A DNA stretch of 20,000 nt from an uncultured virus (IMG/VR IMGVR_UViG_3300033175_000390) (lineage: Duplodnaviria > Heunggongvirae > Uroviricota > Caudoviricetes), in IMG/VR virus record IMGVR_UViG_3300033175_000390; one strand, written 5' to 3'. Under the pieces are notes generated by a model. It did not search any database. It saw only the letters and a program-made list of their open reading frames with translations, and was not told the origin of the DNA. Positions 1-16,444 of this stretch are shown here, one piece after another; positions within the stretch are counted from its first letter, which is position 1; the number at the start of each line of letters is the position of its first letter. Made by a program: the position numbers and the translations under genes.

Positions 1-377
1 TCAGTAACATTGAGCAGCAGAGCCTTGAATTCGTCAAATACACCCTCGACCCTTGGGTGATCAGGTGGGAGCAGTCTTTACAGCAGTCTCTCATCTTGCC
101 ATCGGAAAAGACGACGATCTTTATCAAGTTCAACCTCGACGGACTGCTTCGTGGCGACTATCAAAGCCGTATGCAAGGATACTCCACGGGCATTCAAAAC
201 GGCTTCATGTCGGTCAACGACGTGCGTAGCTTGGAAGATATGAACTTGTTGACCGCCGAGGAAGGCGGCGACCTGCACTTCGTCAACGGCAACATGGTCA
301 AGTTGGCCGACGTCGGCGCGGCGTACCTTCCTCCCGAACAGTCGGGCAACCCAAAAGAAACGGAGGACACTTCATGA
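1..377 (+). CDS. HK97-family phage portal protein, C-terminal part (5' end lies outside the window)
   Basis: The frame is open from position 3 (SNIEQQSLEFVKYTLDPWVIRWEQ...FNLDGLLRGD...NGFMSVNDVRSLEDMN...GGD). These are typical HK97 portal C-terminal motifs, and the gene directly precedes protease and capsid. Confidence 0.93.
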   Translation, partial: SNIEQQSLEFVKYTLDPWVIRWEQSLQQSLILPSEKTTIFIKFNLDGLLRGDYQSRMQGYSTGIQNGFMSVNDVRSLEDMNLLTAEEGGDLHFVNGNMVKLADVGAAYLPPEQSGNPKETEDTS

Positions 378-1078
378 AAGTAAAGAAATTCTGGAACTGG
401 GTGCGAGACGAAACAACAGGCGAACGTACCCTCTACCTAGACGGGGTCATTTCCGAGGACACTTGGTGGGGAGACGAAATCACTCCAGCAATGTTTAAGT
501 CGGAACTGTTCTCAGATAAAGGAGATATCATCATCTGGCTCAACTCACCCGGCGGCGATTGTATCGCAGCCAGCCAAATCTATGCCATGCTGATGGATTA
601 TCCGCACAACGTCACAGTTAAGATTGACGGCATTGCAGCTTCGGCGGCAAGCGTAGTAGCGATGGCGGGGACAAAAGTCCTCATGGCTCCCACCGCTCTG
701 ATGATGGTGCATAACCCGCTGACCATTGCCATCGGCGACAGCGAGGAAATGCAAAAAGCGCTGGATATGCTCGCCGAGGTGAAGGAGAGCATTATCAACG
801 CCTATCAAATCAAGACCAACCAGAGCCGGGTAAAAATCTCCCACTGGATGGACGCCGAAACATGGATGAACGCCAACAAGGCAATGGAACTTGGCTTTGC
901 CGATGGTGTACTGGAGGACGGCAAACGACAGCAAGCTGCTCCGACTTATGCGTTCAGCCGCAGAGCGGTTACTAATTCCCTGCTTGACAAGGTTAAGCCG
1001 AAAATAGCAGCCGAACCTGCGCCGCAAAGCGTACCCGTTGAGTCGCTCGAAAAGCGGCTCAATTTGATTATCCACTAA
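374..1078 (+). CDS. ClpP-like head maturation protease
   Basis: S14 protease motifs LNSPGG, GIAASAAS (catalytic Ser), MMVHNP and ETWMNANKAMELGFAD. RBS GGAGG upstream; lies between portal and capsid. Confidence 0.93.
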   Translation: MKVKKFWNWVRDETTGERTLYLDGVISEDTWWGDEITPAMFKSELFSDKGDIIIWLNSPGGDCIAASQIYAMLMDYPHNVTVKIDGIAASAASVVAMAGTKVLMAPTALMMVHNPLTIAIGDSEEMQKALDMLAEVKESIINAYQIKTNQSRVKISHWMDAETWMNANKAMELGFADGVLEDGKRQQAAPTYAFSRRAVTNSLLDKVKPKIAAEPAPQSVPVESLEKRLNLIIH

Positions 1079-1097
1079 TTTTATGGAGGTAAAGACA

Positions 1098-2273
1098 ATG
1101 AGTAAAATTCTTGAACTGCGTGAAAAGCGCAACAAAATCTGGAACACCGCTAAACAGTTCCTCGACCAAAAGCGCGGCGCGGACGGGCTTGTCCCCGCTG
1201 AAGCTGCCGCTGAGTACGACAAGATGGAAGCCGACATGGTCGCCCTCGGCAAGGAAATCGAGCGCCTGGAACGTCAAGCGGCCTTCGACCTCGAAATGAG
1301 CAAGGCAACATCTGAGCCTATTGTCGGCAAGCCTATCACCCCCGAAAAACCCAAGACTGGCAGAGCTTCCGACGAGTACCGTGCAGATTTCCGCAACGTT
1401 CTGCGCGGCAAGCCGATGATTCACAATGTCATGCTGGAAGGCGTGGACGCGGACGGCGGCTATCTCGTGCCGGAGGAATTCGAACGTCAGATTATTACGG
1501 GGCTTGAGGAATCCAACGTCGTCCGCTCCATCGCCAAGGTCATCACGACCTCTGCGGAGCGCAAAATCCCGCTTGCTTCCACCCACAGCGTAGCACAGTG
1601 GACGCTTGAAAACGGGGCGTACCAAGAAAGTAACCCCACCTTCGGGCAAATCACCGTGGACGCCTACAAGCTGACCGATCTCGTGAAGATTTCCACGGAA
1701 CTCCTGCAGGATTCGATGTTCGATCTTGAAACCTACATCGCCGGGGAATTCTCCCGCGCCTTCGGCATCGCCGAGGAGCAGGCGTTTTGCGTCGGCACCG
1801 GCACGGGTCAGCCCACGGGTATCTTCACGACAAACGGTGGTCACATCGGTGTGGCTGCGGGAGCAGCTGTCACGGTGGATAATCTTATCGACTTGATTTA
1901 CAGCCTGAAAGCCCCGTACCGCAGAAACGCCAAGTTCCTGATGAAGGACAGTACCATCTCTTCGCTCCGCAAACTGAAAGACAGCAACGGTGCGTATCTC
2001 TGGCAGCCTTCTGTTCAGGCGGGTCAGCCCGACCGCTTGCTCGGCTACCCGATTTACACCTCTCCGTATGTGCCGGATGTGGCGGCGTCGGCGCTGCCGA
2101 TTGCCTTCGGTGATTTCTCCAACTACTGGATTTGCGACCGTCTGGGCAGAACGGTGCAAAGGCTCAACGAACTCTACAGCACCAACGGGCAGGTCGGCTT
2201 CATCTGCACTCAGCGTGTGGACGGCAAGGTCATCCTCGCCGAAGGTATCCAACTGCTCCAGATGGGCGCGTAA
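1098..2273 (+). CDS. HK97-fold major capsid protein
   Basis: N-terminal coiled-coil delta domain, then GGYLVPEEF, GTGTGQPTGI, LRKLKDSNGAYLWQP and FGDFS motifs. Start placed at ATG 1098 after GGAGG at 1085-1089. Confidence 0.95.
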   Translation: MSKILELREKRNKIWNTAKQFLDQKRGADGLVPAEAAAEYDKMEADMVALGKEIERLERQAAFDLEMSKATSEPIVGKPITPEKPKTGRASDEYRADFRNVLRGKPMIHNVMLEGVDADGGYLVPEEFERQIITGLEESNVVRSIAKVITTSAERKIPLASTHSVAQWTLENGAYQESNPTFGQITVDAYKLTDLVKISTELLQDSMFDLETYIAGEFSRAFGIAEEQAFCVGTGTGQPTGIFTTNGGHIGVAAGAAVTVDNLIDLIYSLKAPYRRNAKFLMKDSTISSLRKLKDSNGAYLWQPSVQAGQPDRLLGYPIYTSPYVPDVAASALPIAFGDFSNYWICDRLGRTVQRLNELYSTNGQVGFICTQRVDGKVILAEGIQLLQMGA

Positions 2274-2291
2274 GAACGGAGGTGAACGGCG

Positions 2292-2609
2292 ATGACGCCA
2301 ACAGAATTGTTACCGAAAGTCAAAGAAAACCTGATACTGGCCCACGGTGAGGACGACGCTCTGCTCCTGCGGCTCATCGCCACCGCCGTGAACTATGCGG
2401 AAAGCTATCAGCATATCGCGGAGGGCTATTACACTGAAAACCCGATGCCGCCCACCACAGAACAGGCGGTGATTATGCTGTCGAGCCATTTCTTTGAAAG
2501 CAGAGATGGCTCGACGGCCGGTTTCTTCGCCGACAGCGTACAGGCAGGTCAGCAGGTCTGGAACACGGTCAACCTCTTACTGCGGCTGGACAGGAAGTGG
2601 AGCGTATGA
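2292..2609 (+). CDS. Head-tail connector (HK97 gp6-like)
   Basis: 105 aa; VKENLIL..EDDALL...AESY and QAVIMLSSHFFESR motifs; first gene after the capsid; RBS GGAGGTGA. Confidence 0.88.
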   Translation: MTPTELLPKVKENLILAHGEDDALLLRLIATAVNYAESYQHIAEGYYTENPMPPTTEQAVIMLSSHFFESRDGSTAGFFADSVQAGQQVWNTVNLLLRLDRKWSV

Positions 2610-2938
2610 GCTTTGGAAAGATGAACACCTTTGTAGACCTTATTGAGAAAGTAACTACAAAAGACTCGGAAGGTTTCAGCACTGAGATTGACAATATTGT
2701 TGCTTCAATAAGAGCATATCGGGAAGGTCGGCACGGCAACGAGAAATGGGCAAACAGAGCCACATTCTCCGAAGCCACCGACCTTTTCCGTTTCCGCTCT
2801 ATTCCAGGTGTCACCGTTACGACTGCAATGCATATTTCTTGTGAATACGGACGATTTGAAATCACTTCTGTGGAGGATGTCAAAGGTCGTGGAATGTACA
2901 TTGAAGTACTCGCCAAGGAGGTGAAGCCCAGTGGCTAA
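2606..2938 (+). CDS. Head closure / head-tail adaptor (SPP1 gp16-like)
   Basis: MSFGKMN...KDSEG...FRFR...FEITSVEDV pattern; ATGA overlap with the preceding stop; syntenic position. Confidence 0.82.
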   Translation: MSFGKMNTFVDLIEKVTTKDSEGFSTEIDNIVASIRAYREGRHGNEKWANRATFSEATDLFRFRSIPGVTVTTAMHISCEYGRFEITSVEDVKGRGMYIEVLAKEVKPSG

Positions 2939-3362
2939 ACCAACTATGAAAATGCCGGAGGACTTCTTGTTGAAGGTTTCCCGGCTGGCCGATCAGACCG
3001 ATGTCATCCTCCCCAGGGTGCTGAAAGCGGGCGGCGAGGTCGTCCTGGACAAGGTAAAAGGAAACCTAAGCTCGTCTATCGGACGCGGCACGAAATACCC
3101 GTCCAAGTCCACCGGCGAATTGATGGGCGCATTGGGGGTCTCCCCGGCGAAGCAGGATTGGGACGGCAACTTCAACGTGAAGGTCGGCTTTTCAGAACCT
3201 CGGAAGGACGGCGGCTCCAATGCCAAGATTGCCAACATCATCGAGTACGGCAAGCATGGCCAGCCGCCCAAGCCCTTCCTCAAGCCCGCCAAGTCAGCTT
3301 CACGGAAGGCTTGCATCGAAGCGATGGCCGTCAAGCTGGATGAGGAGATTAGAAACCTATGA
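2931..3362 (+). CDS. HK97 gp10-family neck/tail component
   Basis: STGEL and IIEYGKHGQPPKPFLKPA motifs; GTG start with RBS AAGGAGGTG. Confidence 0.85.
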   Translation: MAKPTMKMPEDFLLKVSRLADQTDVILPRVLKAGGEVVLDKVKGNLSSSIGRGTKYPSKSTGELMGALGVSPAKQDWDGNFNVKVGFSEPRKDGGSNAKIANIIEYGKHGQPPKPFLKPAKSASRKACIEAMAVKLDEEIRNL

Positions 3363-3703
3363 GCATTTTATCTGAATTGAACAGCCTGCTTGACGGACTT
3401 CACATCCCGGTTGAAACAGGCGTGTTTTCCACCGCCGCCCCGGAAGAGTATGTGGTTATCACTCCCCTTGCTGATACCTACGAACTCCATGCGGACAACC
3501 GCCCGAAATTCGAGACCCAGGAAGCGCGGCTGTCATTGTTCTCCAAGGGCAGCTACACCCAGCGCAAGAACCAAATCTGCGCCGCCCTGCTGGAAACGGA
3601 GATGACCGTGACCGATCGCCGCTACGTCGGGCATGAGGATGACACGGGCTATCACCACTACGCCATCGACGTGGCGAAAGAATACGAAGTACAGGAGGAA
3701 TAA
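3359..3703 (+). CDS. Putative tail completion/terminator protein
   Basis: 114 aa acidic protein ending HEDDTGYHHYAIDV, immediately upstream of the major tail gene. The call rests mostly on synteny. Confidence 0.7.
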   Translation: MSILSELNSLLDGLHIPVETGVFSTAAPEEYVVITPLADTYELHADNRPKFETQEARLSLFSKGSYTQRKNQICAALLETEMTVTDRRYVGHEDDTGYHHYAIDVAKEYEVQEE

Positions 3704-3707
3704 CACT

Positions 3708-4301
3708 ATGGCTACTATCGGGCTTGACAAGCTCTACTACGCGCCGATTACCGAGTCGGCGGCCACGGGCGAGGAATCTTACGGCACCCCCGTCCTGTTG
3801 GCAAAAGCAATCTCAGCGGAGCTGTCGGTTGAACTGGCTGAAGCGACCCTCTACGCCGATGACGGAGCGGCCTATGTCATCAAAGAATTTAAAAACGGAA
3901 AGCTGAAACTTGGTGTTGACGACATTGGGCGCACCCAGGCGGAAACCCTTACCGGAGCGGCCACCGACGAAAACGGGGTGCTTATCTCATCCAGTGAGGA
4001 CGGCGGACCCCCTGTCGCCATCGGCTTTCGGGCCAAGAAAGCCAATGGCGCTTACCGCTACTTTTGGTTTTACAAAGTTAAGTTCGGGGTGCCGTCTACG
4101 AACCTGGCCACCAAAGGTGACTCCATCACTTTCTCTACGCCCACAATTGAAGGTACGGTATCGCGCCGCAACAAACTGGACGGCAACGGCAACCACCCCT
4201 GGAAGGCTGAGGTCAACTCGGACGATGACGGTGTGGCGGCGGCGATCATCACCGGTTGGTACACGGAAGTTTACGAGCCAGCCTTCGCTCTGCAGGGTTA
4301 A
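3708..4301 (+). CDS. Major tail (tube) protein, phi13-family-like
   Basis: MATIGLDKLYYA...LYADDG...VAIGFRAKKANG.YRYFWFYKVKF...TKGDSITFSTPTIEG. Start at ATG 3708 after AGGAGG. Confidence 0.9.
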   Translation: MATIGLDKLYYAPITESAATGEESYGTPVLLAKAISAELSVELAEATLYADDGAAYVIKEFKNGKLKLGVDDIGRTQAETLTGAATDENGVLISSSEDGGPPVAIGFRAKKANGAYRYFWFYKVKFGVPSTNLATKGDSITFSTPTIEGTVSRRNKLDGNGNHPWKAEVNSDDDGVAAAIITGWYTEVYEPAFALQG

Positions 4302-4315
4302 AGGAGGTCTGACCT

Positions 4316-4699
4316 ATGGATAACGAGAGAAGCGCGAAAATCAATATCGGGGGCACGGATTTTGAACTGGTTCTTACTACAAGAGCTACCAAGGAAATAG
4401 CCCGCCGCTATGGCGGTCTGGAAAATCTAGGCGAGAAACTGATGAAGGCTGAAAACTTCGAACTTGCCTTAGATGAGATTATCTGGCTGATTACGCTCTT
4501 AGCCAACCAGTCCATCCTCATCCATAACCTAAGAAACAAGGACGCACCAAAATCTGTTCTTACCGAGGACGAGGTGGAACTTTTGACCTCGCCTTTGGAA
4601 CTGGCCAGCTACAAGGCGGCCATCACCGAAGCGATGTTTAAAGGCACCAAACGCGACATCGAGAGCGAGGGTGACCTAAAAAACACCGGAGCCGAGTAA
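4316..4699 (+). CDS. Tail assembly chaperone, short form (gpG equivalent)
   Basis: 127 aa ORF between major tail and tape measure genes; RBS AAGGAGG; in-frame slippery heptamer A AAA AAC near its 3' end. Confidence 0.85.
   Translation: MDNERSAKINIGGTDFELVLTTRATKEIARRYGGLENLGEKLMKAENFELALDEIIWLITLLANQSILIHNLRNKDAPKSVLTEDEVELLTSPLELASYKAAITEAMFKGTKRDIESEGDLKNTGAE
4678..4684 (+). other. -1 programmed ribosomal frameshift slippery site (A AAA AAC)
   Basis: Codons CTA AAA AAC (4676-4684) give an X XXY YYZ heptamer in the gpG frame. The -1 frame stays open past the gpG stop: HRSRVSDDELFTRLLY up to 4731. Confidence 0.82.
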
Positions 4700-4731
4700 G
4701 CGACGATGAGTTGTTTACCCGGCTTCTTTAT
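4684..4731 (+). CDS. Tail assembly chaperone frameshift extension (gpGT), exon 1 in the -1 frame
   Basis: 16 codons, CAC CGG AGC CGA GTA AGC GAC GAT GAG TTG TTT ACC CGG CTT CTT TAT, ending exactly at the intron 5' GTGCG. Confidence 0.78.
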
Positions 4732-5289
4732 GTGCGCCCAGATAGGGCATTGCCTAATGTGGTGTAGGAGCCACTCCGAACGATAACTCGGGAAATAACC
4801 CACTTAACCGAAAGGCGAAAGCTGGCACGGGAACAAAGCACGGTGGGAAAGCGGTAAGTCACCTTAAAACACATTGGTGCGACTGAACTGCAATATTAAG
4901 CGGATATAAGGTTTAAATTGGGTTTATTGAATGCGAGTTTCCAGTTTCTGTTAGTCGTAGGCGGAGGAAATGTGTTTGTAACCTCTGGAGCAGGAAAGGT
5001 TGTCATTAATAGAGGGACAATCGGTTATCAAATATCCTGTTCAACACGCAAGAGAACTTGTGATAACGAAACGAAAGCAAAACCGACAATCCGCACATAC
5101 CTGTAGGCAGTGTTAACTGGGGATACCCTAAACAGGAACGCCACAACGCGGCTATAGCCACAGGGCTTGAATACCCTGCATGGGTACGGAGCGTTCGTAG
5201 TAGTCCGAGGACGGGAAAGCCGTCCACATGGCGAAGGGACGCAGTTGTTGTGTACTAAAATCAAAATTGATTAGGGAGGAAAACCTCAT

Positions 5290-7080
5290 ATGCAACCAAC
5301 AATAGAGATTTTAGCAAGAATCAGCGTAAACTCTAACGCAAACAAGGATGAAGTTTTTACAAGACTTTACCGCTATTTGTTGCGACCAGATATCTACTTT
5401 GAAGCATATAAAAACCTGTATGCCAATAACGGAGCAGCGACCCGTGGCGTGGATAATGATACCGCAGACGGTTTTAGCGAAGCGAAAATTGATAAAATAA
5501 TAAAATCGCTTAGTGATGAAACCTACACGCCAAAATCAGTGCGAAGAACTTATATCGATAAGGGAAACGGGAAAAAGCGACCGTTGGGCATTCCGACTTT
5601 TACGGACAAACTGGTGCAGGAGGCACTTCGTATGGTACTTGAAGCTGTGTATGAACCGTCTTTCTTGGATTGGTCGCACGGTTTCAGACCGAACCGAAGC
5701 TGTCATACCGCGCTGGCAAGTTTGAAGAAAGAGTTTACAGGGGCGCGTTGGTTTGTCGAGGGCGACATTAAGGGTTGTTTTGATAATATCGACCACGCCG
5801 TTTTAATAAGTATGCTGAACAAGAAAGTGAAGGATGCACGAATAGTCAAACTGATTTACAAATTTTTAAAAGCAGGTTATATGGAAAATTGGCAGTACCA
5901 CAACACCTACAGCGGTACTCCGCAAGGCGGAATTATTTCGCCGTTGCTTGCCAATATCTATCTGCACGAACTGGATAAGTTTGTAATGATGTTAAAGGCA
6001 GAGTTTAACAAGCCGAGAGAAACCCATTCCACGTATGAATACGGGGTTATAAGAAGAAAGATGAAAAAACTCCGTAAGGAAATCGAAAACGCGGACGGTG
6101 ACAAGCGTGGGCAATTGCTTGATGAATATAAAGCAACTCGCGCACAGTTATTACAAACCCCCGCGAAGTCACAAACTGATAAGAAAATCAAGTATATCAG
6201 ATATGCAGACGATTTTTTGATTGCCGTCAACGGAAGTCGTGAGGACTGTGCGGAAATCAAGCGCAGGTTATTCGAATTTATCGGACAGACCTTGAAAATG
6301 GAACTCAGCGACGAAAAAACGTTGATTACCCATAGCAATGATTACGCGCGGTTTTTGGGCTACGATGTACGTGTGAGGAGAAATGGAAAAATTAAGCGCG
6401 GCGGTAAAAATGGTTGTACTAAACGCACGCTTAGCAATAATGTGGAACTCTTAGTGCCCTTTGAAGATAAAATCAATAAATTCCTGTTCTCAAAGGGTGT
6501 TGTTAAACAACGGCTGAACGGTACTGTCTACCCAACGCACAGACCCGCCCTGGAACGATTGACCGACCTTGAAATTGTGATGACCTACAACGCCGAACTC
6601 CGTGGAATATGCAATTATTACAGATTAGCCAGCAACTATAATAGTCTTGGGTATTTTGCATATCTGATGGAATATAGTTGTTTACGAACGCTTGCAGGAA
6701 AACACAAATCAAAGGTTAGCAAAATCAAGGAGAAGTTCAAAGACGGTCATGGCAAATGGGGTATTCCTTATACGACTAAAAAGGGTGAAAAGCGCTGTTA
6801 TTTCGCTAAATTAGCCGATTGCAAAGGGGCAAAATTCTGTACGGATATATTGCCAAACGCTTTTGTAATCCACATGAGCGCAAGAAATACCTTTGAAAAC
6901 AGGTTGAAAGCGAAAGTTTGCGAGCTATGTGGGACAACGGATGCAGAACACTATGAAATTCATCACATTCACAAGGTAAAAGACCTCAAAGGGAAAGAGC
7001 CTTGGAAAGTGGCGATGATAGCCAAACGGCGAAAAACTATGGTGGTTTGCAGAAACTGTCATAACACAATTCATCATTAA
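5290..7080 (+). CDS. ltrA: Group II intron-encoded protein (reverse transcriptase / maturase / HNH endonuclease)
   Basis: 596 aa, collinear with Lactococcus LtrA as recalled: EVFTRLYRYLLRPDIY, RPLGIPTFTDKL, HGFRP, EGDIKGCFDNIDH, GTPQGG, YIRYADDF, FLGY, ELRGICNYY, and C-terminal CELCG..EIHH..CRNCH. Confidence 0.95.
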   Translation: MQPTIEILARISVNSNANKDEVFTRLYRYLLRPDIYFEAYKNLYANNGAATRGVDNDTADGFSEAKIDKIIKSLSDETYTPKSVRRTYIDKGNGKKRPLGIPTFTDKLVQEALRMVLEAVYEPSFLDWSHGFRPNRSCHTALASLKKEFTGARWFVEGDIKGCFDNIDHAVLISMLNKKVKDARIVKLIYKFLKAGYMENWQYHNTYSGTPQGGIISPLLANIYLHELDKFVMMLKAEFNKPRETHSTYEYGVIRRKMKKLRKEIENADGDKRGQLLDEYKATRAQLLQTPAKSQTDKKIKYIRYADDFLIAVNGSREDCAEIKRRLFEFIGQTLKMELSDEKTLITHSNDYARFLGYDVRVRRNGKIKRGGKNGCTKRTLSNNVELLVPFEDKINKFLFSKGVVKQRLNGTVYPTHRPALERLTDLEIVMTYNAELRGICNYYRLASNYNSLGYFAYLMEYSCLRTLAGKHKSKVSKIKEKFKDGHGKWGIPYTTKKGEKRCYFAKLADCKGAKFCTDILPNAFVIHMSARNTFENRLKAKVCELCGTTDAEHYEIHHIHKVKDLKGKEPWKVAMIAKRRKTMVVCRNCHNTIHH

Positions 7081-7107
7081 GAGTTTAACTGACCAAACAA
7101 CAATGGG

Positions 7108-7141
7108 GAGCCGGATACCTTGAGAGGGGTAAGTCCGGTTC
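7108..7141 (+). ncRNA. Group II intron catalytic domain V
   Basis: GAGCCGGATACCTT-GAGA-GGGGT-AA-GTCCGGTTC: a 34-nt hairpin with AGC triad (7109-7111), GNRA loop and 2-nt bulge. Confidence 0.93.
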
Positions 7142-7202
7142 CGGGAGAGGACTGTGCAAACCTACCGTAGAAATGCGGCAAGGCGGCATTTTCCTACTCC
7201 AC

Positions 7203-7358
7203 TACGGTACGGTGCATCTGAACCGTTCCGAAGAGGAAACCTGGCTGACCCCGTTGGGTCTGCTCATGGACTTGTGGGAGTGTCATAAGCAGTTTCTGGG
7301 CTTGGCCAGGCCCAAACAGGAGATGTTCATAGACGGCATCATTCCGGAAGGCGTTTAA
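7203..7358 (+). CDS. Tail assembly chaperone frameshift extension (gpGT), exon 2
   Basis: Starts at the first base after the intron with TAC and reads YGTVHLNRSEEETWLTPLGLLMDLWECHKQFLG...PEGV* (51 aa). Joins exon 1 in frame as ...FTRLLY|YGTVHL... Confidence 0.82.
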   Translation, partial: YGTVHLNRSEEETWLTPLGLLMDLWECHKQFLGLARPKQEMFIDGIIPEGV

Positions 7359-7406
7359 GGGTTATCTGCATATAAGCGGCGGCTTATGCACAGATAGCCC
7401 TTTTCT
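7357..7406 (+). terminator. Intrinsic terminator-like hairpin between gpGT and tape measure genes
   Basis: AAGGGTTATCTG (7357-7368) pairs with CAGATAGCCCTT (7391-7402), with an inner ATAAGC/GCTTAT stem; the 3' arm ends in a short TTTTCT (7401-7406). Confidence 0.55.
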
Positions 7407-7439
7407 ATGTGCAATTCCGCAGCTAAAGGAGGTGGCGGC

Positions 7440-9845
7440 ATGGCGGACAATTTCGGCCTTAAAATTGGGGTCGAAGGCGAAAAGGAATTTAAAAATGCTC
7501 TCAGGGACATCAACCAGTCCTTTAAGGTGCTGGGTAGCGAAATGACCCTCGTAACCAGCCAATTTGATAAAAACGATAAATCCATACAATCGGTTACCGC
7601 CCGGAACACGGTTCTAAGTAAAGAAATCGACGCTCAGAAAGAGAAGATTTCCACCCTTAAGGCTGCACTGGACAATGCCTCCTCCTCTTTCGGTGAAAAT
7701 GACCGCCGTACTCAGAACTGGCAGATTCAACTAAATAAGGCTCAGGCAGAAATCAACGGTATGGAGCGTGAACTTGAGCAGTCCACAATCGATGCGGATA
7801 AGCTCGGTGAAGAATTAGACGATTCCGGTAAAAGTGCTGACGAGGCCAGTGGCAAGTTCGAAAAGCTGGGCGGCATCCTCAAAGGCATCGGCGTAACTAT
7901 GGGCGCGGTTGCGGTTGCCGCCGGTGCCGCCGCAATCAAGCTAGGCCAAGAAGTCGTGCAGCAGTTCGGCGAACTGGAGCAGAACCTGGGCGGTTCAGAA
8001 GCCGTGTTCGGCCAGTACGCCGCCTCCATCCAGAAGACCGGCGAAGAAGCCTACAAGAACCTGGGAGTTTCCCAAAGCGAGTACCTCGCCACCGCCAATA
8101 AGATGGGTGCGCTGTTCCAAGGCTCCGGCATTGAACAGCAAAAGTCGCTGGAACTGACTGAAAAAGCCATGCAGCGAGCGGCGGATATGGCCTCCGTCAT
8201 GGGTATTGATATGCAGATGGCTTTGGACTCCGTGGCAGGTGCGGCCAAAGGCAATTTCACCATGATGGATAACCTGGGCGTAGCCATGAATGCCACCAAC
8301 ATCCAAGCCTACGCTTTAGCCAAGGGCCTTGACTTCACCTGGGCATCCGCCACCAATGCGGAAAAAGCCGAAGTCGCCATGCAGATGTTCTTTGATACTA
8401 CCGAGCAGTATGCGGGGAACTTCGCCAAGGAGTCGACCCAGACCATCACTGGTTCAATCGGGCTGCTCCAAGCCGCCCTGGGATCGTTTACCGCCGGGCT
8501 GGGCAACGCCAACGCCGATATGACAAACCTGACCCAGAATCTGGTGGAAGCCTTTCAGGCTGTCGTTACTAACATTGTACCGGTTTTGGAGAACATCGTA
8601 GCTGCGCTGCCCCCGGCGGTTGGTTCCATATTGCAGGCGGTGGGTGATCTGCTGCCCACGCTCCTGAGTACAGTTACGGAACTGTTCTCGCAAGTGCTGG
8701 AAACCGTCCTGAATCTTTTGCCGCAACTAATCCCGGCGGCTGTTGGTGCCGTAATGACGATTGTCGGGGCCTTGATTGATAACCTTCCATTGCTCATCGA
8801 AGCGGCAGTGCAGCTGGTGTCTGCCCTTGTGGAGGGCATCGGTCAGGCTTTGCCGGAGTTAATCCCCGCCGCCGTAAACGCTGTCGCAACGATTGTCCAA
8901 GGCTTGGCAGACAATCTGCCCATGCTGCTGGGCGCGGCTTTGCAGCTTATCCTGGGCCTGGCGCAGGGGCTGGTGGACGCGATACCGCAGTTAATTGCCG
9001 CATTGCCCGCCATAATTAATGCTCTGGTTGATTTCATCATCGGGGCTGTGCCGCAGATTATCCAGGCGGGCATCCAGCTTTTAGCGGCCTTGGTCAAAGG
9101 ACTGCCGGAAATCATCATAGCTGTTGTGGCAGCCATACCCCAGATTGTCGAAGCGCTGGTTACCGCCATCATAGACCCGGAAAGCACCGGGATGATAATT
9201 GAGGCTGGTTTTGTCCTCTTTGTTTCTTTGATTCAGAACCTGCCTGCCATCATAGCTGCCATAGTTAAAGCCGTACCCCCGATCATTACCGCCATAGTGA
9301 ACGACTTTCGCCAGGGCATCGACCGTATTGTGGAGGTAGGCAAGTTTATCGTCGAGGGTATCTGGGAAGGGGTCAGCCAGATGGGTGGCTGGCTGGCGGA
9401 CAAAGTGAGAAACTTTGCTAAATCCATCATTGACTCCATAACCAGCGCTTTAGGGATTAGCTCGCCATCAGTCGTCATGCGGGACTTGGTCGGCAAAAAC
9501 CTGGTATTAGGTTTGGCGGAAGGAATAAGCCAAAACAGCAAAGACGCGGTCATAGCAGCTCATCGTCTGGTCAGCGATACTCTGGCTGCCATGGAGGAAC
9601 TGAGCAAGGGGACGGATTTTACGATTGCAGTGGGTGGTCTTAAGTCTGGATTGGAAGGTATGATGCCGCCAGCAGCAGCTCCTTCTGAACTGGCTTCATC
9701 AAACTTCGGCAGATATTCCCCAGACACACCAGGCAGCGCTGTGATCAACAACACTCTAAACTTTTACACTCCCACCGCCAGCCCAGCGGATATCGCTAAA
9801 GCCAGCCGCCGGGCAGCGGAGCAGATGCTGCGGTATGCCACTTAG
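7440..9845 (+). CDS. Tail tape measure protein (801 aa)
   Basis: Long Ala/Leu/Ile-rich helical protein with periodic LP.L/IP.I repeats and a C-terminal LGISSPS motif. RBS AAAGGAGGTG before ATG 7440. Confidence 0.93.
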   Translation: MADNFGLKIGVEGEKEFKNALRDINQSFKVLGSEMTLVTSQFDKNDKSIQSVTARNTVLSKEIDAQKEKISTLKAALDNASSSFGENDRRTQNWQIQLNKAQAEINGMERELEQSTIDADKLGEELDDSGKSADEASGKFEKLGGILKGIGVTMGAVAVAAGAAAIKLGQEVVQQFGELEQNLGGSEAVFGQYAASIQKTGEEAYKNLGVSQSEYLATANKMGALFQGSGIEQQKSLELTEKAMQRAADMASVMGIDMQMALDSVAGAAKGNFTMMDNLGVAMNATNIQAYALAKGLDFTWASATNAEKAEVAMQMFFDTTEQYAGNFAKESTQTITGSIGLLQAALGSFTAGLGNANADMTNLTQNLVEAFQAVVTNIVPVLENIVAALPPAVGSILQAVGDLLPTLLSTVTELFSQVLETVLNLLPQLIPAAVGAVMTIVGALIDNLPLLIEAAVQLVSALVEGIGQALPELIPAAVNAVATIVQGLADNLPMLLGAALQLILGLAQGLVDAIPQLIAALPAIINALVDFIIGAVPQIIQAGIQLLAALVKGLPEIIIAVVAAIPQIVEALVTAIIDPESTGMIIEAGFVLFVSLIQNLPAIIAAIVKAVPPIITAIVNDFRQGIDRIVEVGKFIVEGIWEGVSQMGGWLADKVRNFAKSIIDSITSALGISSPSVVMRDLVGKNLVLGLAEGISQNSKDAVIAAHRLVSDTLAAMEELSKGTDFTIAVGGLKSGLEGMMPPAAAPSELASSNFGRYSPDTPGSAVINNTLNFYTPTASPADIAKASRRAAEQMLRYAT

Positions 9846-9859
9846 AAAGGAGGAAGGCT

Positions 9860-10726
9860 GTGCAGAAGCTGGTATTTACGAATTCAAGGGGCCTATCGGT
9901 TTCCTTTGATACAGTGACTCCCTATCTTTTTTGGAAGATAGACGGCACCGGCTTGCCCCCGGTTACGCCCATACAGACCCAGACCGTCGGGCAGAACGGT
10001 TATACACTGCACTCCACCTTGCTGGAATCCCGCGAAGTGCGCCTGACCGGGCATATATACAGCCGTGAGGGTTTTAAGGCGTTTTACTCTGCCCGCAAGC
10101 GGATAAACGCAGTTTGCAACCCCTTGCTGGGTCCCGGCTGGATTCTTTACGAAAATAACTATGGTGTATTTAAAACCGGCGCCTTTGTGACAGACATAGC
10201 TTTCAGAGACCGGGTAGGCAACTCCCAGACCCTAACGGTTTCATTTGAGTGTCCTTCGCCTTTTTGGACGGCGGCGGAAAAAAGCGTGGCCTTACTGGCT
10301 TACATGTGGGGCGGGATGTCTTTCCCGATTAAAACCCCGAATCGTTTTGGAGTTATGGGCTACCAGGCCATCATCAACAACGACTCGGACGCGGATACCC
10401 CGCTAGAGCTTACCATGGACGGAGGTTCTTTAAACCCGGAGATAATTAACCAGACTACCGGGGAGTTTATTAAACTGGCGCACCAGGTTAACCCCGGCGA
10501 TAAGCTCTACATCAACACTGACCCGGAATACCTGGAAGTCAGCCTGATTACCACCGATCCGGAAACCAACCAGAAAGTAAAGCAAAACGCTTACGGCTAC
10601 ATTACCCACGACTCCTCCTTGTTCAAGCTGGTACCGGGGGTAAACCGCCTGACTTTTGAGTCTGACGATGAGAACACGGCGGTGCGGCTGGTGATTGGCT
10701 TTTACAAAAGATATGTGGGGGTGTAG
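9860..10726 (+). CDS. Distal tail protein (Dit; siphovirus tail component)
   Basis: Follows the tape measure gene; FECPSPFW, INNDSDADTP, NPEIINQTTGE and FKLVPGVNRL motifs typical of Dit-like proteins; GTG start. Confidence 0.82.
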   Translation: MQKLVFTNSRGLSVSFDTVTPYLFWKIDGTGLPPVTPIQTQTVGQNGYTLHSTLLESREVRLTGHIYSREGFKAFYSARKRINAVCNPLLGPGWILYENNYGVFKTGAFVTDIAFRDRVGNSQTLTVSFECPSPFWTAAEKSVALLAYMWGGMSFPIKTPNRFGVMGYQAIINNDSDADTPLELTMDGGSLNPEIINQTTGEFIKLAHQVNPGDKLYINTDPEYLEVSLITTDPETNQKVKQNAYGYITHDSSLFKLVPGVNRLTFESDDENTAVRLVIGFYKRYVGV

Positions 10727-10728
10727 GT

Positions 10729-11841
10729 ATGGCAGATATTTGTGAAATCCGGGTTTACGACCCAGAGCTTAACTGGATTGGAGTATGCGCCACCGCCGAG
10801 TCGGCGCGTTTTGAGCGAGAACTCTACGGGGCGGGAGCTTTTGAAATTCATGTGCGCCCTGAGAAATCCGGGGCGATAGAACTGGCCACCCCCGGCAATT
10901 TTATCATCATAAACGGAGATCCCGCTTGGTCGGGAATCATCCGCAGCTTTTCGGTCATCGAGAGCCGGGGCCAAGCCGAGTTTGCCATCTGGGGCGAATC
11001 TTGCGCCGGAATATTAAAACAGCGGGTAATCGTGCCCCCTACCCAGGCTCAGGATCTCACGGCCTTGGGTTGGGATAAAGTGACGGGCAGCGCGGAAGCG
11101 GTTATGAAACATTACGTCAGCCTGCAGGCAATGGAGCCTTATGACCCTGCCCGCGCTTTTCCCCTGCTGAGGATAGAGGCAAACCAGAACCGAGGTCAGT
11201 CCTTTTCTTGGCAGGCGCGTTACTCCATCCTTCTAGACGAGTTAAGCGATATCGGCAAATACGCCGGAATGGGTTTTGCGGTAACGGCTCACGCCGGAGC
11301 GAAGCAGCTTGCCTTTGAGACTGTTCTCGGCACTGACCGCAGCAAAAACCAGGATATAGTCTCCCCCGTGTCCTTTAACATGGAGTACCAGAACCTGGCT
11401 GACTACACCTACACGGAAGATTACAGTAATTACCGCACCACCGCCTATGCCGGGGGTGACGGCAAGGACGAAAACCGGCCGGTAATTGTACTAGACGGTG
11501 ATATATCCGGCCTTTTGCGCTTTGAAACCTTTATTGACTGCTCCAACGCCAAGAATACGGCGGAACTGCAGGCCCTGGGGCGGCAAAAGCTCGCTGAGAT
11601 GGCGGCGGCTAAAAACGTGGAGGCTTCCGCTTTGCCCAAGGCCTACATCTTCGGTCAGGATTACTTTTTAGGCGACCTGGTGACCTTGTATATCTCCCGG
11701 CTGGGACTGGATATCAGTGCCAGGGTTACCTCTGCGGTTGAAATCTGGGAAAGGCAGTCCGGACACAAGACGGAAATCCGCTTTGGGGAGAAGCTGCCCA
11801 ATATATTTACCACATCTTTAAAAAAGGAGGTGATCCTCTAA
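10729..11841 (+). CDS. Tail hub / Tal-like protein (ReqiPepy6 gp37-like family)
   Basis: 370 aa after Dit; GAFEIH, AYAGGDGKDENR, RFETFID and DYFLGDLVT motifs; no evident lysin extension. Confidence 0.75.
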   Translation: MADICEIRVYDPELNWIGVCATAESARFERELYGAGAFEIHVRPEKSGAIELATPGNFIIINGDPAWSGIIRSFSVIESRGQAEFAIWGESCAGILKQRVIVPPTQAQDLTALGWDKVTGSAEAVMKHYVSLQAMEPYDPARAFPLLRIEANQNRGQSFSWQARYSILLDELSDIGKYAGMGFAVTAHAGAKQLAFETVLGTDRSKNQDIVSPVSFNMEYQNLADYTYTEDYSNYRTTAYAGGDGKDENRPVIVLDGDISGLLRFETFIDCSNAKNTAELQALGRQKLAEMAAAKNVEASALPKAYIFGQDYFLGDLVTLYISRLGLDISARVTSAVEIWERQSGHKTEIRFGEKLPNIFTTSLKKEVIL

Positions 11842-12803
11842 TGGCACAAATCTGGTACGGACATTTTGACTCAACTGAAGATGACGAACGTGTCCTATTG
11901 GCAGAAGACTGGGCCAGGTATATACGCTCTTTCGTTTCCGACGGCGTCCGCAATGGCGGGGCTTGCCTGCAGGTCAGCGCTGATGGAGGCGCTAACGTTA
12001 AGATAGATACCGGCATTGCCTCAATTCAGGGATATATCTTTTATCTGGATGAAGATTACACGGGCAGATACTACAGTGTACCCGTCCCTGACGCCAACCC
12101 CAGCCTGAACAGAATAGACCGTTTAATCCTGCGCCTGGATCGGACCATCCAGAACCGGGCCATCATTCCCCTGGTCTTAACCGGAGAAGCCTCCGCCAGC
12201 CCGGTGCCGCCTGCTTTGACAAGGAACGAAAACATCTATGAGCTGTCTTTAGCGCGTATCTATGTGAAAGCCGGGGCTTTGCAAGTCTATGAACAGGATA
12301 TTACCGACGAGCGTTTTATCCAAGAGGTATGTGGACTGATGCACTCGGTGCTGGGACTGGACTCATCCGCCTGGCAAGCTCAGTTTGACGCCTTTATGGC
12401 CCAAATTGGGGCTGCTTTTACCGATGCCCAAAATGACCGGGATAATAACTGGCAGGGACAGATGGACAGTCAAGAGGCACAGTTTGAAACCTTTATGGAC
12501 GGGGCACAAAGTAGCCTGGCGACCGCTGCCGGTTTTGACTTCTGGAACACAGCTCGTTTACCGGGGAATTATTATCTGACTGAGTACCCAGCCGACGGCA
12601 GCATCGTCACTACTATCAAAAAAACGGCTGGCGATACTCTAGTAGCTACCGGGGTTACCACCTACCCGGCAGACGGTTCAGTGGTTTATGAGGAAACGGT
12701 CTACCAGGCGGATGGAGCGACTATCCAGCGCCACACTATTGAAACTACAACTTACGCGGCCGACGGAAGTATTATGAAGGAGGTGCAGGGGCTGTATGAT
12801 TGA
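11841..12803 (+). CDS. Putative baseplate/tail-tip structural protein
   Basis: N-terminal region with RIDRLILRLD...PVPPALTRN..IYELSLARIYV, as seen in Firmicutes siphophage post-Tal proteins; a helical linker; C-terminal YxADG repeats. Confidence 0.65.
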   Translation: MAQIWYGHFDSTEDDERVLLAEDWARYIRSFVSDGVRNGGACLQVSADGGANVKIDTGIASIQGYIFYLDEDYTGRYYSVPVPDANPSLNRIDRLILRLDRTIQNRAIIPLVLTGEASASPVPPALTRNENIYELSLARIYVKAGALQVYEQDITDERFIQEVCGLMHSVLGLDSSAWQAQFDAFMAQIGAAFTDAQNDRDNNWQGQMDSQEAQFETFMDGAQSSLATAAGFDFWNTARLPGNYYLTEYPADGSIVTTIKKTAGDTLVATGVTTYPADGSVVYEETVYQADGATIQRHTIETTTYAADGSIMKEVQGLYD

Positions 12804-14304
12804 AGCCGACATCAAAAAATTCTTAAATGACCGGGTTCCCAATGATCCTGAGTTTAAAGCCTTAAACCGGCAAATTGAGGGGTTAGAGGGAATGCTCGCT
12901 GCCGAAGCGGATAAAGAGCAATTAAGGCGGATGCGCAGGCGGTTGGCAAACGCGGCCACTTATTGCGCGGGGGTTAATTTTCCCAATACCGCCGCTTTGT
13001 ATTTCCCCACCGTCAGGAGCCAATACAATAACAGCAATATTTTCTTAACCAGCCACTATGCCAATAACATAGGCTGGGGCAACATCAACACTTTTAAGCT
13101 TAAAATCAATGATGCCATGGATACCTTCGTGTACCTCTATACCGACGGCGCCAGCGCCAGTTATTCCATGTGGCGCTTGGCCGGGGCTTATAACGGGGGT
13201 ACGTTTTTGACACAAAGCACCAGAACGGCAATCTCCTTTACTGGGCTGCCTTCAGATATATCCTATACCGCCATGGATATGTCGGCAGATGGTGATATTG
13301 TCTGCGTCGCCACCAGCAACGAGGCCAACCGGCTGACGGTGCTCAAACGAAACAGCGGTTCCAATACCGCCTATACAGCCGCAACGGTTGACGCTCAGCC
13401 GGACGCCAATGCCAGCGCCCTTTGCCTAAGCGGCGATGGCAGGATGATATTGGTGTCCCACACTGCCGCTCCTTATTTGACGGTCTATATGACCAATGCC
13501 GACCGCAGTGCCTATACCCGGCAAAGCTTGGCTGAAATCGGTGTTAGCGTGGGCCGGGCAGTGTATATCACCGCCGCCAGTTTTGACGGCGCTACTTTTG
13601 CCCTGGGCTATAACCAAAATACGGCCGCCACCCCGGCGGTAGATGTTTACCGGCTGCAGCCGGGCGGGGTTTATGCCTCAGCGGGGGTGGATTACCTCTC
13701 CCTATATAGTTTAGGCATTTTATGCTACGGCCACCGGGAAGGGCTGCAATTAAGCCGTGACGGCAACACCCTGCTTATGTTCCTGCGGCAGTCCACCAAT
13801 TACTATGAACCGGTAATTCTGAAATTCGACGAGTCAGGACAGCGCTTCGCTTTTGACGCGACAGAACACAACAACCAAATCTGGCGTCTTTCCTATTCCT
13901 CGACGGAATACGGCGGCGGATTAAGTTACCGTGACATTAATTATGAACTGTCGGCGGACGGCAACTGGCTTTTTTCCAGCCAGCTTTACCGCAGTACCTC
14001 ATCGCCATATGGTGTCTACAACCTGCTGCGGGTCATGGATGTGTCAGGCGGGGTTATCCGCCAGGCTTTGCCGGTACATTCCGCACTGCTTTCCACCACC
14101 AACCCCGGCGACGAAGCCCGCTATGGGGCCTCTTACTGGGCGCAGCACTATTTCTGGGTGGACCCGAAGATGCGTTTTGTCTGGCGGGGAGTGATTCCCT
14201 ATACAAATTACACCAACGATTCCCCCTACTATGCCTATTATTTACACTACAATTCCTACGCCTCCAGCGACATCATCATGCTGGATGGAGTCTGGACTGA
14301 TTAA
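12796..14304 (+). CDS. Putative receptor-binding/adsorption protein with beta-propeller-like repeats
   Basis: 502 aa; short coiled-coil N-terminus; five S/FxDG blade-like motifs; Tyr/Ser/Asn-rich; lies between tail-tip and lysis genes. Confidence 0.55.
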   Translation: MIEADIKKFLNDRVPNDPEFKALNRQIEGLEGMLAAEADKEQLRRMRRRLANAATYCAGVNFPNTAALYFPTVRSQYNNSNIFLTSHYANNIGWGNINTFKLKINDAMDTFVYLYTDGASASYSMWRLAGAYNGGTFLTQSTRTAISFTGLPSDISYTAMDMSADGDIVCVATSNEANRLTVLKRNSGSNTAYTAATVDAQPDANASALCLSGDGRMILVSHTAAPYLTVYMTNADRSAYTRQSLAEIGVSVGRAVYITAASFDGATFALGYNQNTAATPAVDVYRLQPGGVYASAGVDYLSLYSLGILCYGHREGLQLSRDGNTLLMFLRQSTNYYEPVILKFDESGQRFAFDATEHNNQIWRLSYSSTEYGGGLSYRDINYELSADGNWLFSSQLYRSTSSPYGVYNLLRVMDVSGGVIRQALPVHSALLSTTNPGDEARYGASYWAQHYFWVDPKMRFVWRGVIPYTNYTNDSPYYAYYLHYNSYASSDIIMLDGVWTD

Positions 14305-14316
14305 GGGAGTGAAATT

Positions 14317-14949
14317 ATGTACGCGATTTTAAATGAGGACGGCTACTGTATTATGTACGCCAAAGAAGCGCCTTCGCCGGAACTGGCGGTAAAAGTAGCC
14401 ATGGCGGAGGTTTTAAGCGGCAAGTATGCAGGCCAGCGCTTTGATCGGGAAACCGGGCTGTGGGCCGATGAAAGGGACGAGGTTCTGGCGGCGGGTTTCC
14501 CGCCTTATATATTCAGCCTGGAAGAGAAGGTTGATTTAATTCTGACCTTGCTTTGCGGCTTGCTTATGCCGGGCGCTTTTGAAGCCGTTTTATCCCCGGA
14601 TACTGCTATCCTGGCGGCAAACCGGGGGCTGATCAAAGAAACCGCCGACGGCTCCCAGTGGGCACCTAATAAGAGGATGGTAAAAGGCCAGCTGGTAACC
14701 TGGCAAGGGCAGGTGTACAAAATCATCCAAGAGCATATTTCTCAGGCAGACTGGCCGCCGGACATGGTTCCGGCTTTATTTTTGCCTGTGGCCGAGGGCG
14801 GGGTTTTCCCGGAATGGAAACAGCCTAGCGGAGCGCATGACGCTTATCATCTCGGCGACAAAGTGACTTATGAAGGGAAGCTCTGGGTCTGCGTAGTGGA
14901 AAGCACCAGCTACGCGCCGGGGGTATACGGATGGGAGGAATTGCAATGA
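14317..14949 (+). CDS. Phage protein with two C-terminal CBM5/12-like carbohydrate-binding modules
   Basis: W...KGQLVTWQGQVYKIIQEH..DW.P and EW.QPSGAHDAYHLGDKVTYEGKLW...PGVYGW fit the CBM5/12 (ChtBD3-like) pattern. Confidence 0.65.
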   Translation: MYAILNEDGYCIMYAKEAPSPELAVKVAMAEVLSGKYAGQRFDRETGLWADERDEVLAAGFPPYIFSLEEKVDLILTLLCGLLMPGAFEAVLSPDTAILAANRGLIKETADGSQWAPNKRMVKGQLVTWQGQVYKIIQEHISQADWPPDMVPALFLPVAEGGVFPEWKQPSGAHDAYHLGDKVTYEGKLWVCVVESTSYAPGVYGWEELQ

Positions 14950-15356
14950 AAGATATATGGGATATGGTACAAATCGCCGCGGCCGCTTTAGGCGGTTTTA
15001 CAGGCTGGTTTTTAGGAGGCTGGGATGGGTTTGTATTCGCTCTGGTGGCTTTTGTGGTCTTAGACTACCTGACCGGGTTTATGCGGGCGGTGGCGGAGAA
15101 GCGCCTTTCCAGCCAGGTGGGGGCTTTAGGCATTATGAGGAAGGTTTTGATTTTCTTTATCGTAGGCGCCGCCCATGTAGTTGACACCCACCTTTTAGGA
15201 GGTGCGGCAGCGCCCCTTCGTACCGCGGTTATCTTTTTCTACATCGCTAATGAGGGAGTATCCCTGCTGGAAAACACCGCCGCCATAGGGCTGCCGGTGC
15301 CTAATGCCCTTAAGCAGGCACTGGCGCAGCTGCAGGACAAGGAGGGCGACAGATGA
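14946..15356 (+). CDS. Holin (toxin secretion/phage lysis holin family)
   Basis: Hydrophobic segments with LDYLTG, LSS.VG..G..RK and FYIANEGVSLLEN...GLPVP motifs. ATGA overlap at 14946 with RBS GGAGG; directly upstream of the endolysin. Confidence 0.92.
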   Translation: MKDIWDMVQIAAAALGGFTGWFLGGWDGFVFALVAFVVLDYLTGFMRAVAEKRLSSQVGALGIMRKVLIFFIVGAAHVVDTHLLGGAAAPLRTAVIFFYIANEGVSLLENTAAIGLPVPNALKQALAQLQDKEGDR

Positions 15357-16069
15357 ACCTGCGCAAACTGATCTTTACTAACAACGCCTGCTACAAGGCG
15401 GGCAGAACTATAACCCCCAAGGGCATTATGATACATTCTACGGGCGCCAACAACCCATGGCTGAAACGCTATGTGGGACCAGACGACGGGCTTCTTGGCA
15501 AAAACCAGTATGGCAATCACTGGAATCAAAATTTGCCGGAGGGGCGGTCAGTCTGCGCCCACGGCTTTATCGGCAAGCTGGCTGATGGGAGCATTGCTGC
15601 CTATCAGACTTTACCCTGGAACCATCGCGGCTGGCATGCTGGCGGCAAAGCCAACGACACCCATATAGGCTTTGAAATCTGCGAGGACGGACTGAACGAT
15701 GCAGCATATTTCAACAAGGTGTACCAGGAAGCCGCCGAACTGTGCGCCTACCTCTGCAAGCAGTACGGACTGACCGAGAAGAGCGTCATCTGTCACAGCG
15801 AGGGGTATCAGCTGGGCATTGCCAGCAACCATAGTGATGTGATGCACTGGTTTCCCAAGCATGGCAAGTCGATGGATATTTTTCGCACAGAAGTCAAAAG
15901 GCTGCTCACGGCAAGCGAAACGTCAAAACCTCCAGCACCCGTCCCGACCGAGCCGAAGAAACTCTATCGCGTCCAAGTCGGCGCGTATTCGGTTAAAGCA
16001 AACGCGGATGCCATGCTCGAAAGGATCAAGGCGGCAGGGTTTACGGATGCTTTCATCAAAACTGAATGA
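15353..16069 (+). CDS. Endolysin: N-acetylmuramoyl-L-alanine amidase (Amidase_2 type) with C-terminal SPOR domain
   Basis: IMIHSTG, GWHAGG, IGFEICED, CHSEG and NHSD motifs; Pro-rich linker; LYRVQVGAYSVKANA...GF.DAFI SPOR pattern. Confidence 0.92.
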   Translation: MNLRKLIFTNNACYKAGRTITPKGIMIHSTGANNPWLKRYVGPDDGLLGKNQYGNHWNQNLPEGRSVCAHGFIGKLADGSIAAYQTLPWNHRGWHAGGKANDTHIGFEICEDGLNDAAYFNKVYQEAAELCAYLCKQYGLTEKSVICHSEGYQLGIASNHSDVMHWFPKHGKSMDIFRTEVKRLLTASETSKPPAPVPTEPKKLYRVQVGAYSVKANADAMLERIKAAGFTDAFIKTE

Positions 16070-16091
16070 GCCGCTTACGGCGGTACGCAAA

Positions 16092-16394: not shown

Positions 16395-16419
16395 TATTAC
16401 TTGGGTCCAGAGGTAATAT
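16391..16419 (+). promoter_or_regulatory. Putative sigma-A promoter for the recombinase genes, overlapped by an inverted repeat
   Basis: TTGATA (16391-16396), 17-nt spacer, TAATAT (16414-16419). Inverted repeat ATATTAC (16394-16400) / GTAATAT (16413-16419). Confidence 0.55.
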
Positions 16420-16444
16420 GTCACACTAACAAGGAGGTGAGGAA

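Follow-up and report, generated by a model that had tools for sequence, protein, structure and literature searches.

The group II intron Ll.LtrB is the basis of targetrons. Introns of its type are spliced with the help of their own protein, reverse-splice into DNA and are copied by endonuclease-primed reverse transcription, as set out in sections of PMC4424553 and PMC12350094, and Ll.LtrB and Ef.PcfG exemplify the homing of one intron to a conserved site within a gene family whose alleles have diverged (PMC5072309, relevant sections). Group II introns have also been reported in phages by Merk, Jones and Eddy 2025, whose IMG/VR hits number 9,229, and a contig carrying the intron studied here is an unannotated row of their Table S2 (PMC12350094). 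We analysed a 20,000-nucleotide stretch of DNA from an uncultured Caudoviricetes virus (hereafter the window), which according to its ORFs and profile scans covers the head, tail, lysis and integration regions of a temperate siphophage.

Over bases 1–16,077 the window is 100% identical to PV036457.1, a public record placed in Ca. Heliusvirales, whose annotation does not mark the intron described below. Public annotation of the identical region (L242:8439-9000) covers the intron with four small minus-strand ORFs, which our analysis corrects to intron RNA, and puts the gpT start inside intron domain VI. Positions 16161-20000, outside the stretch matching PV036457.1, carry a SHOCT-domain ORF, two large serine recombinases and a short recombinase-like ORF, in that order. 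At 12796-14949, a 502-aa ORF without a Pfam match is followed by a CBM5/12-domain protein, together a candidate receptor-binding module. Promoter and terminator scans were at chance level (4 hits against 4.6 expected, and 3 against 3.5).

The intron lies among the tail genes, which, like the other elements of the window given coordinates below, are on the plus strand. A major tail protein gene of the phi13 family (3708-4301; PHROG 88, TIGR01603) is followed by a 127-aa ORF in frame 0 (4316-4699), for which position and a frameshift signal suggest a tail assembly chaperone of the gpG kind. A −1 slippery heptamer, A AAA AAC, lies in phase with this ORF at 4678-4684. The 5′ part of the −1 frame, or gpT segment, extends over 4678-4731 and ends in Arg-Leu-Leu-Tyr, and the remaining 51 codons form the 3′ exon (7203-7358; PHROG 10988), which is conserved in empty alleles. 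A tape measure protein gene, annotated as such in the identical region of PV036457.1, follows at 7440-9845. Neither gpG nor gpT matched Pfam or NCBIfam, their only profile matches being PHROG 2115 (‘tail protein’) and PHROG 10988 (function unknown). The putative gpG/gpGT chaperone role is thus drawn from the position between the major tail and tape-measure genes and from the frameshift signal. Position, an open −1 frame and a slippery site that is conserved and in phase together correspond to the gpG/gpGT type. Lambda-type gpG/gpGT genes likewise lie between the major tail and tape-measure genes with an X XXY YYZ heptamer in phase (PMC3706429, relevant sections); unlike them, the gpGT product of the window would require both frameshifting and splicing. 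Removal of the intron in silico restores an open −1 frame that starts at the heptamer, near the end of the 127-aa ORF. On unspliced RNA, a ribosome in the −1 frame would terminate 11 codons into the intron, which implies that splicing would be necessary for gpGT. The sole alternative start in the −1 frame is a TTG at 4711, inside a hairpin discussed below. An initial annotation of this DNA had proposed that the frame is reached by frameshifting only, and indeed the heptamer is held in the −1 register in 79 of 79 empty alleles.

Judged by its sequence, 4732-7202 is an intact group IIA intron of the Ll.LtrB clade. It comprises 2,471 nt, and its ends (GUGCG...AC) fit the group IIA rule of 5′ GUGYG and 3′ AY; the exact empty-site joint, 4731>7203, is present in DNA contigs. 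Domains V and VI (7106-7202) match RF00029 at 54.6 bits, above the gathering score, and the match and fold include the catalytic AGC. The 5′ intron RNA is identical to Ll.LtrB at 411 of 558 aligned bases, an alignment that would also imply the epsilon′/lambda′ internal loop and other tertiary contacts. EBS1-IBS1 and EBS2-IBS2 pairings and a delta-delta′ contact from the EBS1 loop, the features that define IIA introns in the relevant part of PMC4424553, are all found. The intron encodes a 596-aa protein (5290-7080) with RT, maturase X and HNH endonuclease regions (Pfam RVT_1, Intron_maturas2 and AI2M-like_HNH) and the RT motif YADD at residue 305. It is ~60% identical to LtrA, whose structure 5g2x was matched at E 1e-250, and scores 299.1 against the TIGR04416 cut-off of 300. 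In two RNA runs (X15, X16), contigs at depth 2–6, too thin to show absence, span parts of the intron and contain no exon-exon joint.

Targeting by such an intron depends on where its EBS elements lie. IBS2 corresponds to exon positions −12 to −8 (4720-4724) and IBS1 to −6 to −1 (4726-4731), with 4725 (−7) as a linker position. EBS2 is at 4953-4957, and an 11-nt Id3 loop (5005-5015) contains delta A5008, EBS1 (5009-5014) and G5015, which stands opposite −7. The pairings put forward initially, namely 4720-4724 with 4953-4957, 4725-4731 with 5009-5015 and A5008 with delta-prime T7203, hold, and the sole non-Watson-Crick pairs are indeed the G-U pairs at −10, −7 and −4, each at the third base of a −1-frame codon. 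Taken alone, these pairings are weak evidence for the assignment: the EBS2 is one of 5 candidate matches at that offset, and the chance that two wobbles fall on the 3 third positions among 11 is p = 3/55 = 0.055, or 4/220 = 0.018 when −7 is counted. What settles the assignment is alignment to Ll.LtrB together with covariation with the exons. In the pairwise alignment, the EBS1 (position 279) and EBS2 of Ll.LtrB fall on the same columns as those of the window intron. Across 38 target sites of related introns, with one representative each, 338 of 418 positions in the equivalent columns form Watson-Crick pairs with the intron's own exon; 2,000 shuffles of the pairing averaged 132 and never exceeded 173, and sliding the register gave 82–119. 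Position −7 is Watson-Crick in 21% and mismatched in 64% of these target groups, so the intron can probably do without the G5015:T(−7) wobble, although seven EBS1 nucleotides are counted for Ll.LtrB in the relevant part of PMC8283771. The three wobbles exist as first described, with −7 mostly unpaired in relatives.

The 38 target sites derive from 159 loci recovered in two scans, 146 of which have a recognisable 5′ end and 142 enough exon. We grouped the 142 by hand, leaving out L072, L078, L079 and L080 (<50% protein identity), in which the EBS was not alignable; three of the four represent one phase-1 site and the other is phase 0. A scan with the L078 protein recovered no relatives. Exon profile scans and junction motifs place 19 of the 38 sites in virion or lysis genes: portal (2), ClpP-like head protease (5), capsid (1, motif only), head-tail adaptor (1), neck (1), major tail (2), gpG (1), gpT (2), tape measure (1) and endolysin (3). 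Twelve belong to conjugation or ICE genes, encoding coupling proteins (4), VirB4-like, NlpC/P60, relaxase (motif only) and DarB-like (2) proteins, a methylase, a sortase and a C39 peptidase; the remainder are four other mobile genes and three unknown. Half of the loci come from a viral collection, which inflates the phage share. Since 17 of the 19 virion/lysis sites are in ordinary reading frames, the initial emphasis on a frameshift-only frame as a special target did not stand. On a quick tree, which does not establish the direction of change, LtrA falls within the clade (99% SH-aLRT) and sits among members that target phage genes, with phage and conjugation targets intermingled. The phages of L087, L119 and L126 carry two related introns, either in the major tail and tape measure genes or in the portal and ClpP-like protease genes. 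An intron in a phage ClpP-like gene (L279:547, and L126:4385, the second intron there) has the EBS1 and delta of Ll.LtrB with a different EBS2, and may represent an intermediate step from one kind of target to the other, relaxase or phage.

Insertion in this clade falls between codons: of the 38 groups, 37 have phase 0 as the frame with the best support, L055 being unclear. A universal phase-0 rule for IIA introns was considered and rejected. More distant IIA introns (40–47% protein identity) include at least three phase-1 sites (L264, L268-L276, L072/L079/L080; EBS placement is unreliable there), which limits the rule to the clade. One such distant family, L268-L276, inserts in phase 1 into a TTQIYA motif, presumably like that of tyrosine integrases. 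Within the clade, phase 0 may persist because it exposes 3 of 12 paired positions to third-base drift, compared with 4 or 5 otherwise, or it may be inherited. The second possibility, that phase was handed down and not selected site by site, we judge nearly as probable as its opposite. A retargeting intron would keep the part of its EBS that fits codon-shaped words, with their G-rich first positions, and with it the phase, and preferences of the intron protein (G−21, T+5) may contribute. This would suit the ClpP intron of L279 and L126, which joins the EBS1 and delta of Ll.LtrB to a similar His-Asn target, an EBS2 word common to five groups, and the off-target copies L017, L132 and L133, which are also phase 0; G−21 occurs in 21 of 38 groups and T+5 in 15 of 32, and phase 1 is seen outside the clade. 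However, the EBS1 hexamers differ in 38 of 38 groups, those sharing the EBS2 word are scattered on the quick tree, and G is no more frequent at −21 than at −3 or −6. Inheritance bears on phase alone, moreover, and is compatible with selection of the EBS for breadth.

Wobble is concentrated at the third codon position. Over the 38 groups, non-Watson-Crick pairs occur at 58 of 114 third positions versus 22 of 304 first and second positions, and the EBS base is G or U at 84 of 114 third positions versus 149 of 304 others. Opposite an exon T, the EBS has A in 47 cases and G in 4 at first and second positions, compared with 10 and 16 at third positions; opposite an exon G, it has C in 100 cases and U in none, compared with 8 and 17. 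Sorted by codon family, NNY codons are faced by G in 31 cases and A in 6, NNR codons by U in 14 and C in 4, and Met and Trp codons by C in 3 of 3. The 31 of 37 G opposite NNY compare with 18.4 expected from host codon usage (p 2.5e-5), while U opposite NNR (11/15 against 8.4 expected, p 0.13) and the four-fold codons (28/40 against 23.1, p 0.08) are not significant alone; overall, the comparison gives 70 of 92 against 49.9 expected. When identical EBS triplets are collapsed, NNY codons retain 12 G versus 4 A (p 0.03). At −1 and −4, roughly one group in four tolerates a true mismatch.

A homing site could exist without any such tuning, the EBS being the plain complement of an ancestral allele and the wobbles arising from third-position drift of the target together with near-neutral A-to-G and C-to-U changes in the EBS. 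Drift alone explains why occupied alleles with a shared EBS vary at 44 of 64 third positions versus 18 of 128 others; the mismatches tolerated at −1 and −4 point the same way, and with 28 distinct EBS2 words among the 38 groups the independent cases are fewer. Yet a neutral ratchet should affect all positions, whereas first and second positions keep A opposite T and C opposite G almost strictly, and the excess of G opposite NNY survives the codon-usage null and, weakly, the collapsing of triplets. We regard this untuned explanation as unlikely, though it retains some weight. Across the clade, introns enter at codon boundaries, keep Watson-Crick pairs strict at the first two codon positions and favour G or U in the EBS at the third. 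The best reading of this pattern is selection for homing breadth across synonymously drifting alleles.

The distribution of the window intron itself bears directly on homing. Four diverged prophage alleles (the window, L003, L004 and L082) are all occupied at RL(L/I)Y|Y, a Tyr|Tyr junction; L001, L002, L081 and PV036457.1 repeat the window allele and were excluded as independent cases. Among the four, the intron differs at 0–1 of 2,471 nt, and the 3′ exons of L003, L004 and L082 are 52–73% identical in an ungapped comparison. All five records searched whole (5/5) contain one intron copy, at the Tyr|Tyr site, and no ectopic one. Empty alleles coexist with occupied ones in the same samples: two DNA runs contain exact empty joints at depth 54 and 214, compared with depth 6–10 for intron contigs. 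On the other side, only 1 of 80 viral gpG loci has the intron, and the two RNA runs showed no spliced joint. An intron that hardly varies between diverged alleles and keeps to a single site, alongside empty alleles, bears the mark of active homing, and on this distribution the intron is recently mobile with a dedicated site. This upholds the initial annotation, which had argued for a dedicated homing site instead of a chance insertion. A chance ectopic insertion in the window prophage is highly improbable, since the ectopic-looking copies of the sister introns L017, L132, L133 and L135 and the discordant 5′ end of L241 are outweighed by a site shared by four diverged alleles and the L241 3′ junction, with no other copy in the five records. 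In L241, a near-identical intron whose 3′ end is at the gpT site, the first 40–75 intron bases are replaced and the 5′ end is joined to a major capsid gene; this is probably a chimeric assembly, the alternative being a real deletion. Scanning metagenomes with the intron 5′ end gave 0 matches, and with an EBS1-loop pattern one, L241; a viral scan with the intron 3′ end returned the known contig only.

Two of the occupied alleles have further peculiarities. The 3′ exon of L004 (5914-6080) apparently shifts frame near its end relative to other alleles, seemingly through a sequencing error or a broken gpT. L003 (732-3442; G003 contig C7, L259) has a single tail chaperone gene interrupted by two distinct introns of the Ll.LtrB clade, one in gpG and the window-type intron in gpT, separated by a 251-nt middle exon that holds the slippery site and the hairpin.

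The 79 empty alleles, which represent 50 distinct contexts, show how the EBS of the window would perform across natural variation. At this site the peptide FTRLxYxG is near-invariant, and aligning the RLLYY codons confirmed the proposal that synonymous variation is tolerated, since 78 of 79 empty alleles (49 of 50 contexts) pair with the window EBS with no more than one mismatch. Were the EBS strictly complementary to the window allele, 58 of 79 (35 of 50 contexts) would do so. Among distinct contexts, the best-covering EBS base is U opposite −10 and G opposite −7, −6 and −4; the G opposite −6, which had escaped earlier notice, reads both CTN and TTR leucine codons. The A opposite −1 is not optimal, covering 46 of 50 contexts where G would cover all 50. 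In two occupied alleles there are true mismatches, G-A at −4 in one and at −6 in another. The EBS is not matched to CGA-CTC-CTC-TAT, initially given as its perfect complement: a perfect match of this type at the 11 core positions is seen in only 3 of 79 empty and 0 of 4 occupied alleles. Nor is EBS fit decisive for occupancy, since one of 80 loci is occupied though 78 of the 79 empty ones look permissive.

Part of the target is also structured. A conserved hairpin (4688-4726), supported by folding, shuffling and covariation, pairs 4688-4704 with 4710-4726; its 5′ arm includes the gpG stop codon (4697-4699), and its 3′ arm contains IBS2 plus positions −7 and −6. It begins three bases 3′ of the heptamer, with the conserved core five to seven bases 3′, and its predicted energy of −24.1 kcal/mol (z −7.3) was reached by 0 of 200 shuffles. 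Of 54 distinct contexts, 50 have exactly 47 nt between the end of the heptamer and the site of insertion. In those 50 alleles, 86.8% of hairpin cells are paired, compared with 33–51% in slid registers, and the −40:−10 pair is never broken (C-G 26, U-G 11, U-A 10, G-C 3). The covariation score was reached by 0 of 500 shuffles, a control that ignores relatedness. From its position, the hairpin is probably a frameshift stimulator. Because IBS2 is the 3′ arm of this stem, codon use at the insertion site is biased, CTT accounting for 42 of 50 codons at the site versus 58 of 319 leucines downstream. Positions −10 and −7 are thus synonymous, as initially stated, yet not free, being base-paired in a conserved hairpin.

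In a simple model, opening IBS2 costs ~14 kcal/mol, against −3.9 gained by EBS2-IBS2 pairing, and masking the 5′ arm of the hairpin, as a ribosome at the gpG stop would, abolishes the stem. These two results lead us to the hypothesis that splicing may be coupled to gpG translation. A structured IBS2 was rejected as a rule for the clade, most other targets being predicted partly open. In five empty alleles (L194, L207, L215, L217, L227) the slippery site and the RLLYY motif are separated by additional sequence, which in at least two of them apparently includes a second hairpin arm. A second intron type lies in gpT 18 nt upstream, inside the same hairpin (L105:193-2677, L106); its insertion parts the hairpin arms, so that in this precursor the hairpin would form only after splicing.

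Taken together, the sequence evidence makes it likely that the window contains an active IIA retroelement of the Ll.LtrB clade homing to the gpGT Tyr|Tyr junction, with its EBS selected for breadth over synonymous alleles. Late-operon RNA would be spliced with the help of the intron protein, restoring the gpGT frame. A lariat-protein particle would then reverse-splice into empty alleles of other prophages, and the inserted intron would be copied by En-primed reverse transcription, as in Ll.LtrB. The target would last because it is doubly constrained, by the FTRLxYxG peptide and by the base-paired hairpin for frameshifting, and EBS U opposite −10 and G opposite −6 and −4 are the single bases that pair with most natural alleles. 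A more far-reaching combination, which we offer tentatively and consider possible rather than probable, joins a radiation of the clade over virion and lysis motifs, an anticodon-like rule, and translation-coupled splicing in the window member. The radiation would have colonised conserved motifs across the virion/lysis module of one temperate phage family as well as conjugative elements; the rule would place the unpaired −7 and the tolerant −1, −4 and −10 on third bases, with G or U; and ribosomes halting at the gpG stop would melt the hairpin, freeing IBS2 for splicing and tying both intron splicing and gpGT output to translation.

This locus offers a detailed example of retrohoming into an essential recoding signal of a phage, with a single protein that would depend on frameshifting as well as splicing, and the clade pattern makes the notion that introns choose conserved sites a testable rule of codon phase and wobble. 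The rule is relevant to the retargeting and persistence of group II introns and to the design of broad-range targetrons, as well as to whether RNA-guided targeting by itself can produce a phase-0 bias. In the introns of fungal mitochondria, a review links such a bias to in-frame ORF fusion (PMC8393795, relevant sections), which cannot apply to the window intron because its protein has its own start.

In the literature searched, outside which lie older subscription papers including target-site work by Lambowitz, Dunny and Zimmerly, we found no report of EBS wobble against codon position, of the phase of bacterial group II insertion sites, of a group II intron in a tail chaperone, or of a radiation into virion genes. 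The sections of PMC12350094 consulted contain no codon-phase or wobble analysis, those of PMC3522654 and PMC12584367 nothing bearing on the codon question, and the main text of PMC11283538 neither ‘intron’ nor ‘frameshift’. New here are an IBS2 that forms the 3′ arm of a conserved, covarying hairpin after a slippery site, and a clade of 38 target sites with 37 between codons and G opposite NNY in 31 of 37.

Among described phage introns, the curated IIA hosts in the relevant part of PMC12350094 are UvrX, a DarB-like helicase and ssb, with two intron proteins 46% and 39% identical to that of the window; its Table S1 lists no tail chaperone, and the virion-related hosts there, a minor tail protein and a terminase, are both IIB. 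Cluster J mycobacteriophages likewise have self-splicing introns in capsid and tail genes, but these are group I according to the authors, without a reverse transcriptase or EBS/IBS targeting (PMC3706429, relevant sections). The closest comparison is with Ll.LtrB and Ef.PcfG, which share with the window intron an 11-nt Id3 loop, delta beside EBS1 and phase 0. The window intron is not Ll.LtrB itself, whose EBS set and relaxase His-Asn|His site are different: its target is the frameshift segment of a tail chaperone, not a relaxase, its EBS1, EBS2 and delta differ, and its IBS2 lies inside a conserved exon hairpin. The initial annotation had set the two introns in contrast, which is right for the target gene but not for the pairing, since Ll.LtrB has G opposite all three third positions (−1, −4 and −10) and shares with the window intron the G-T wobble at −4 (PMC8283771, relevant sections). 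The core idea of that annotation thus holds in a more general form, extending to the clade as a feature common to both introns instead of one that separates them.
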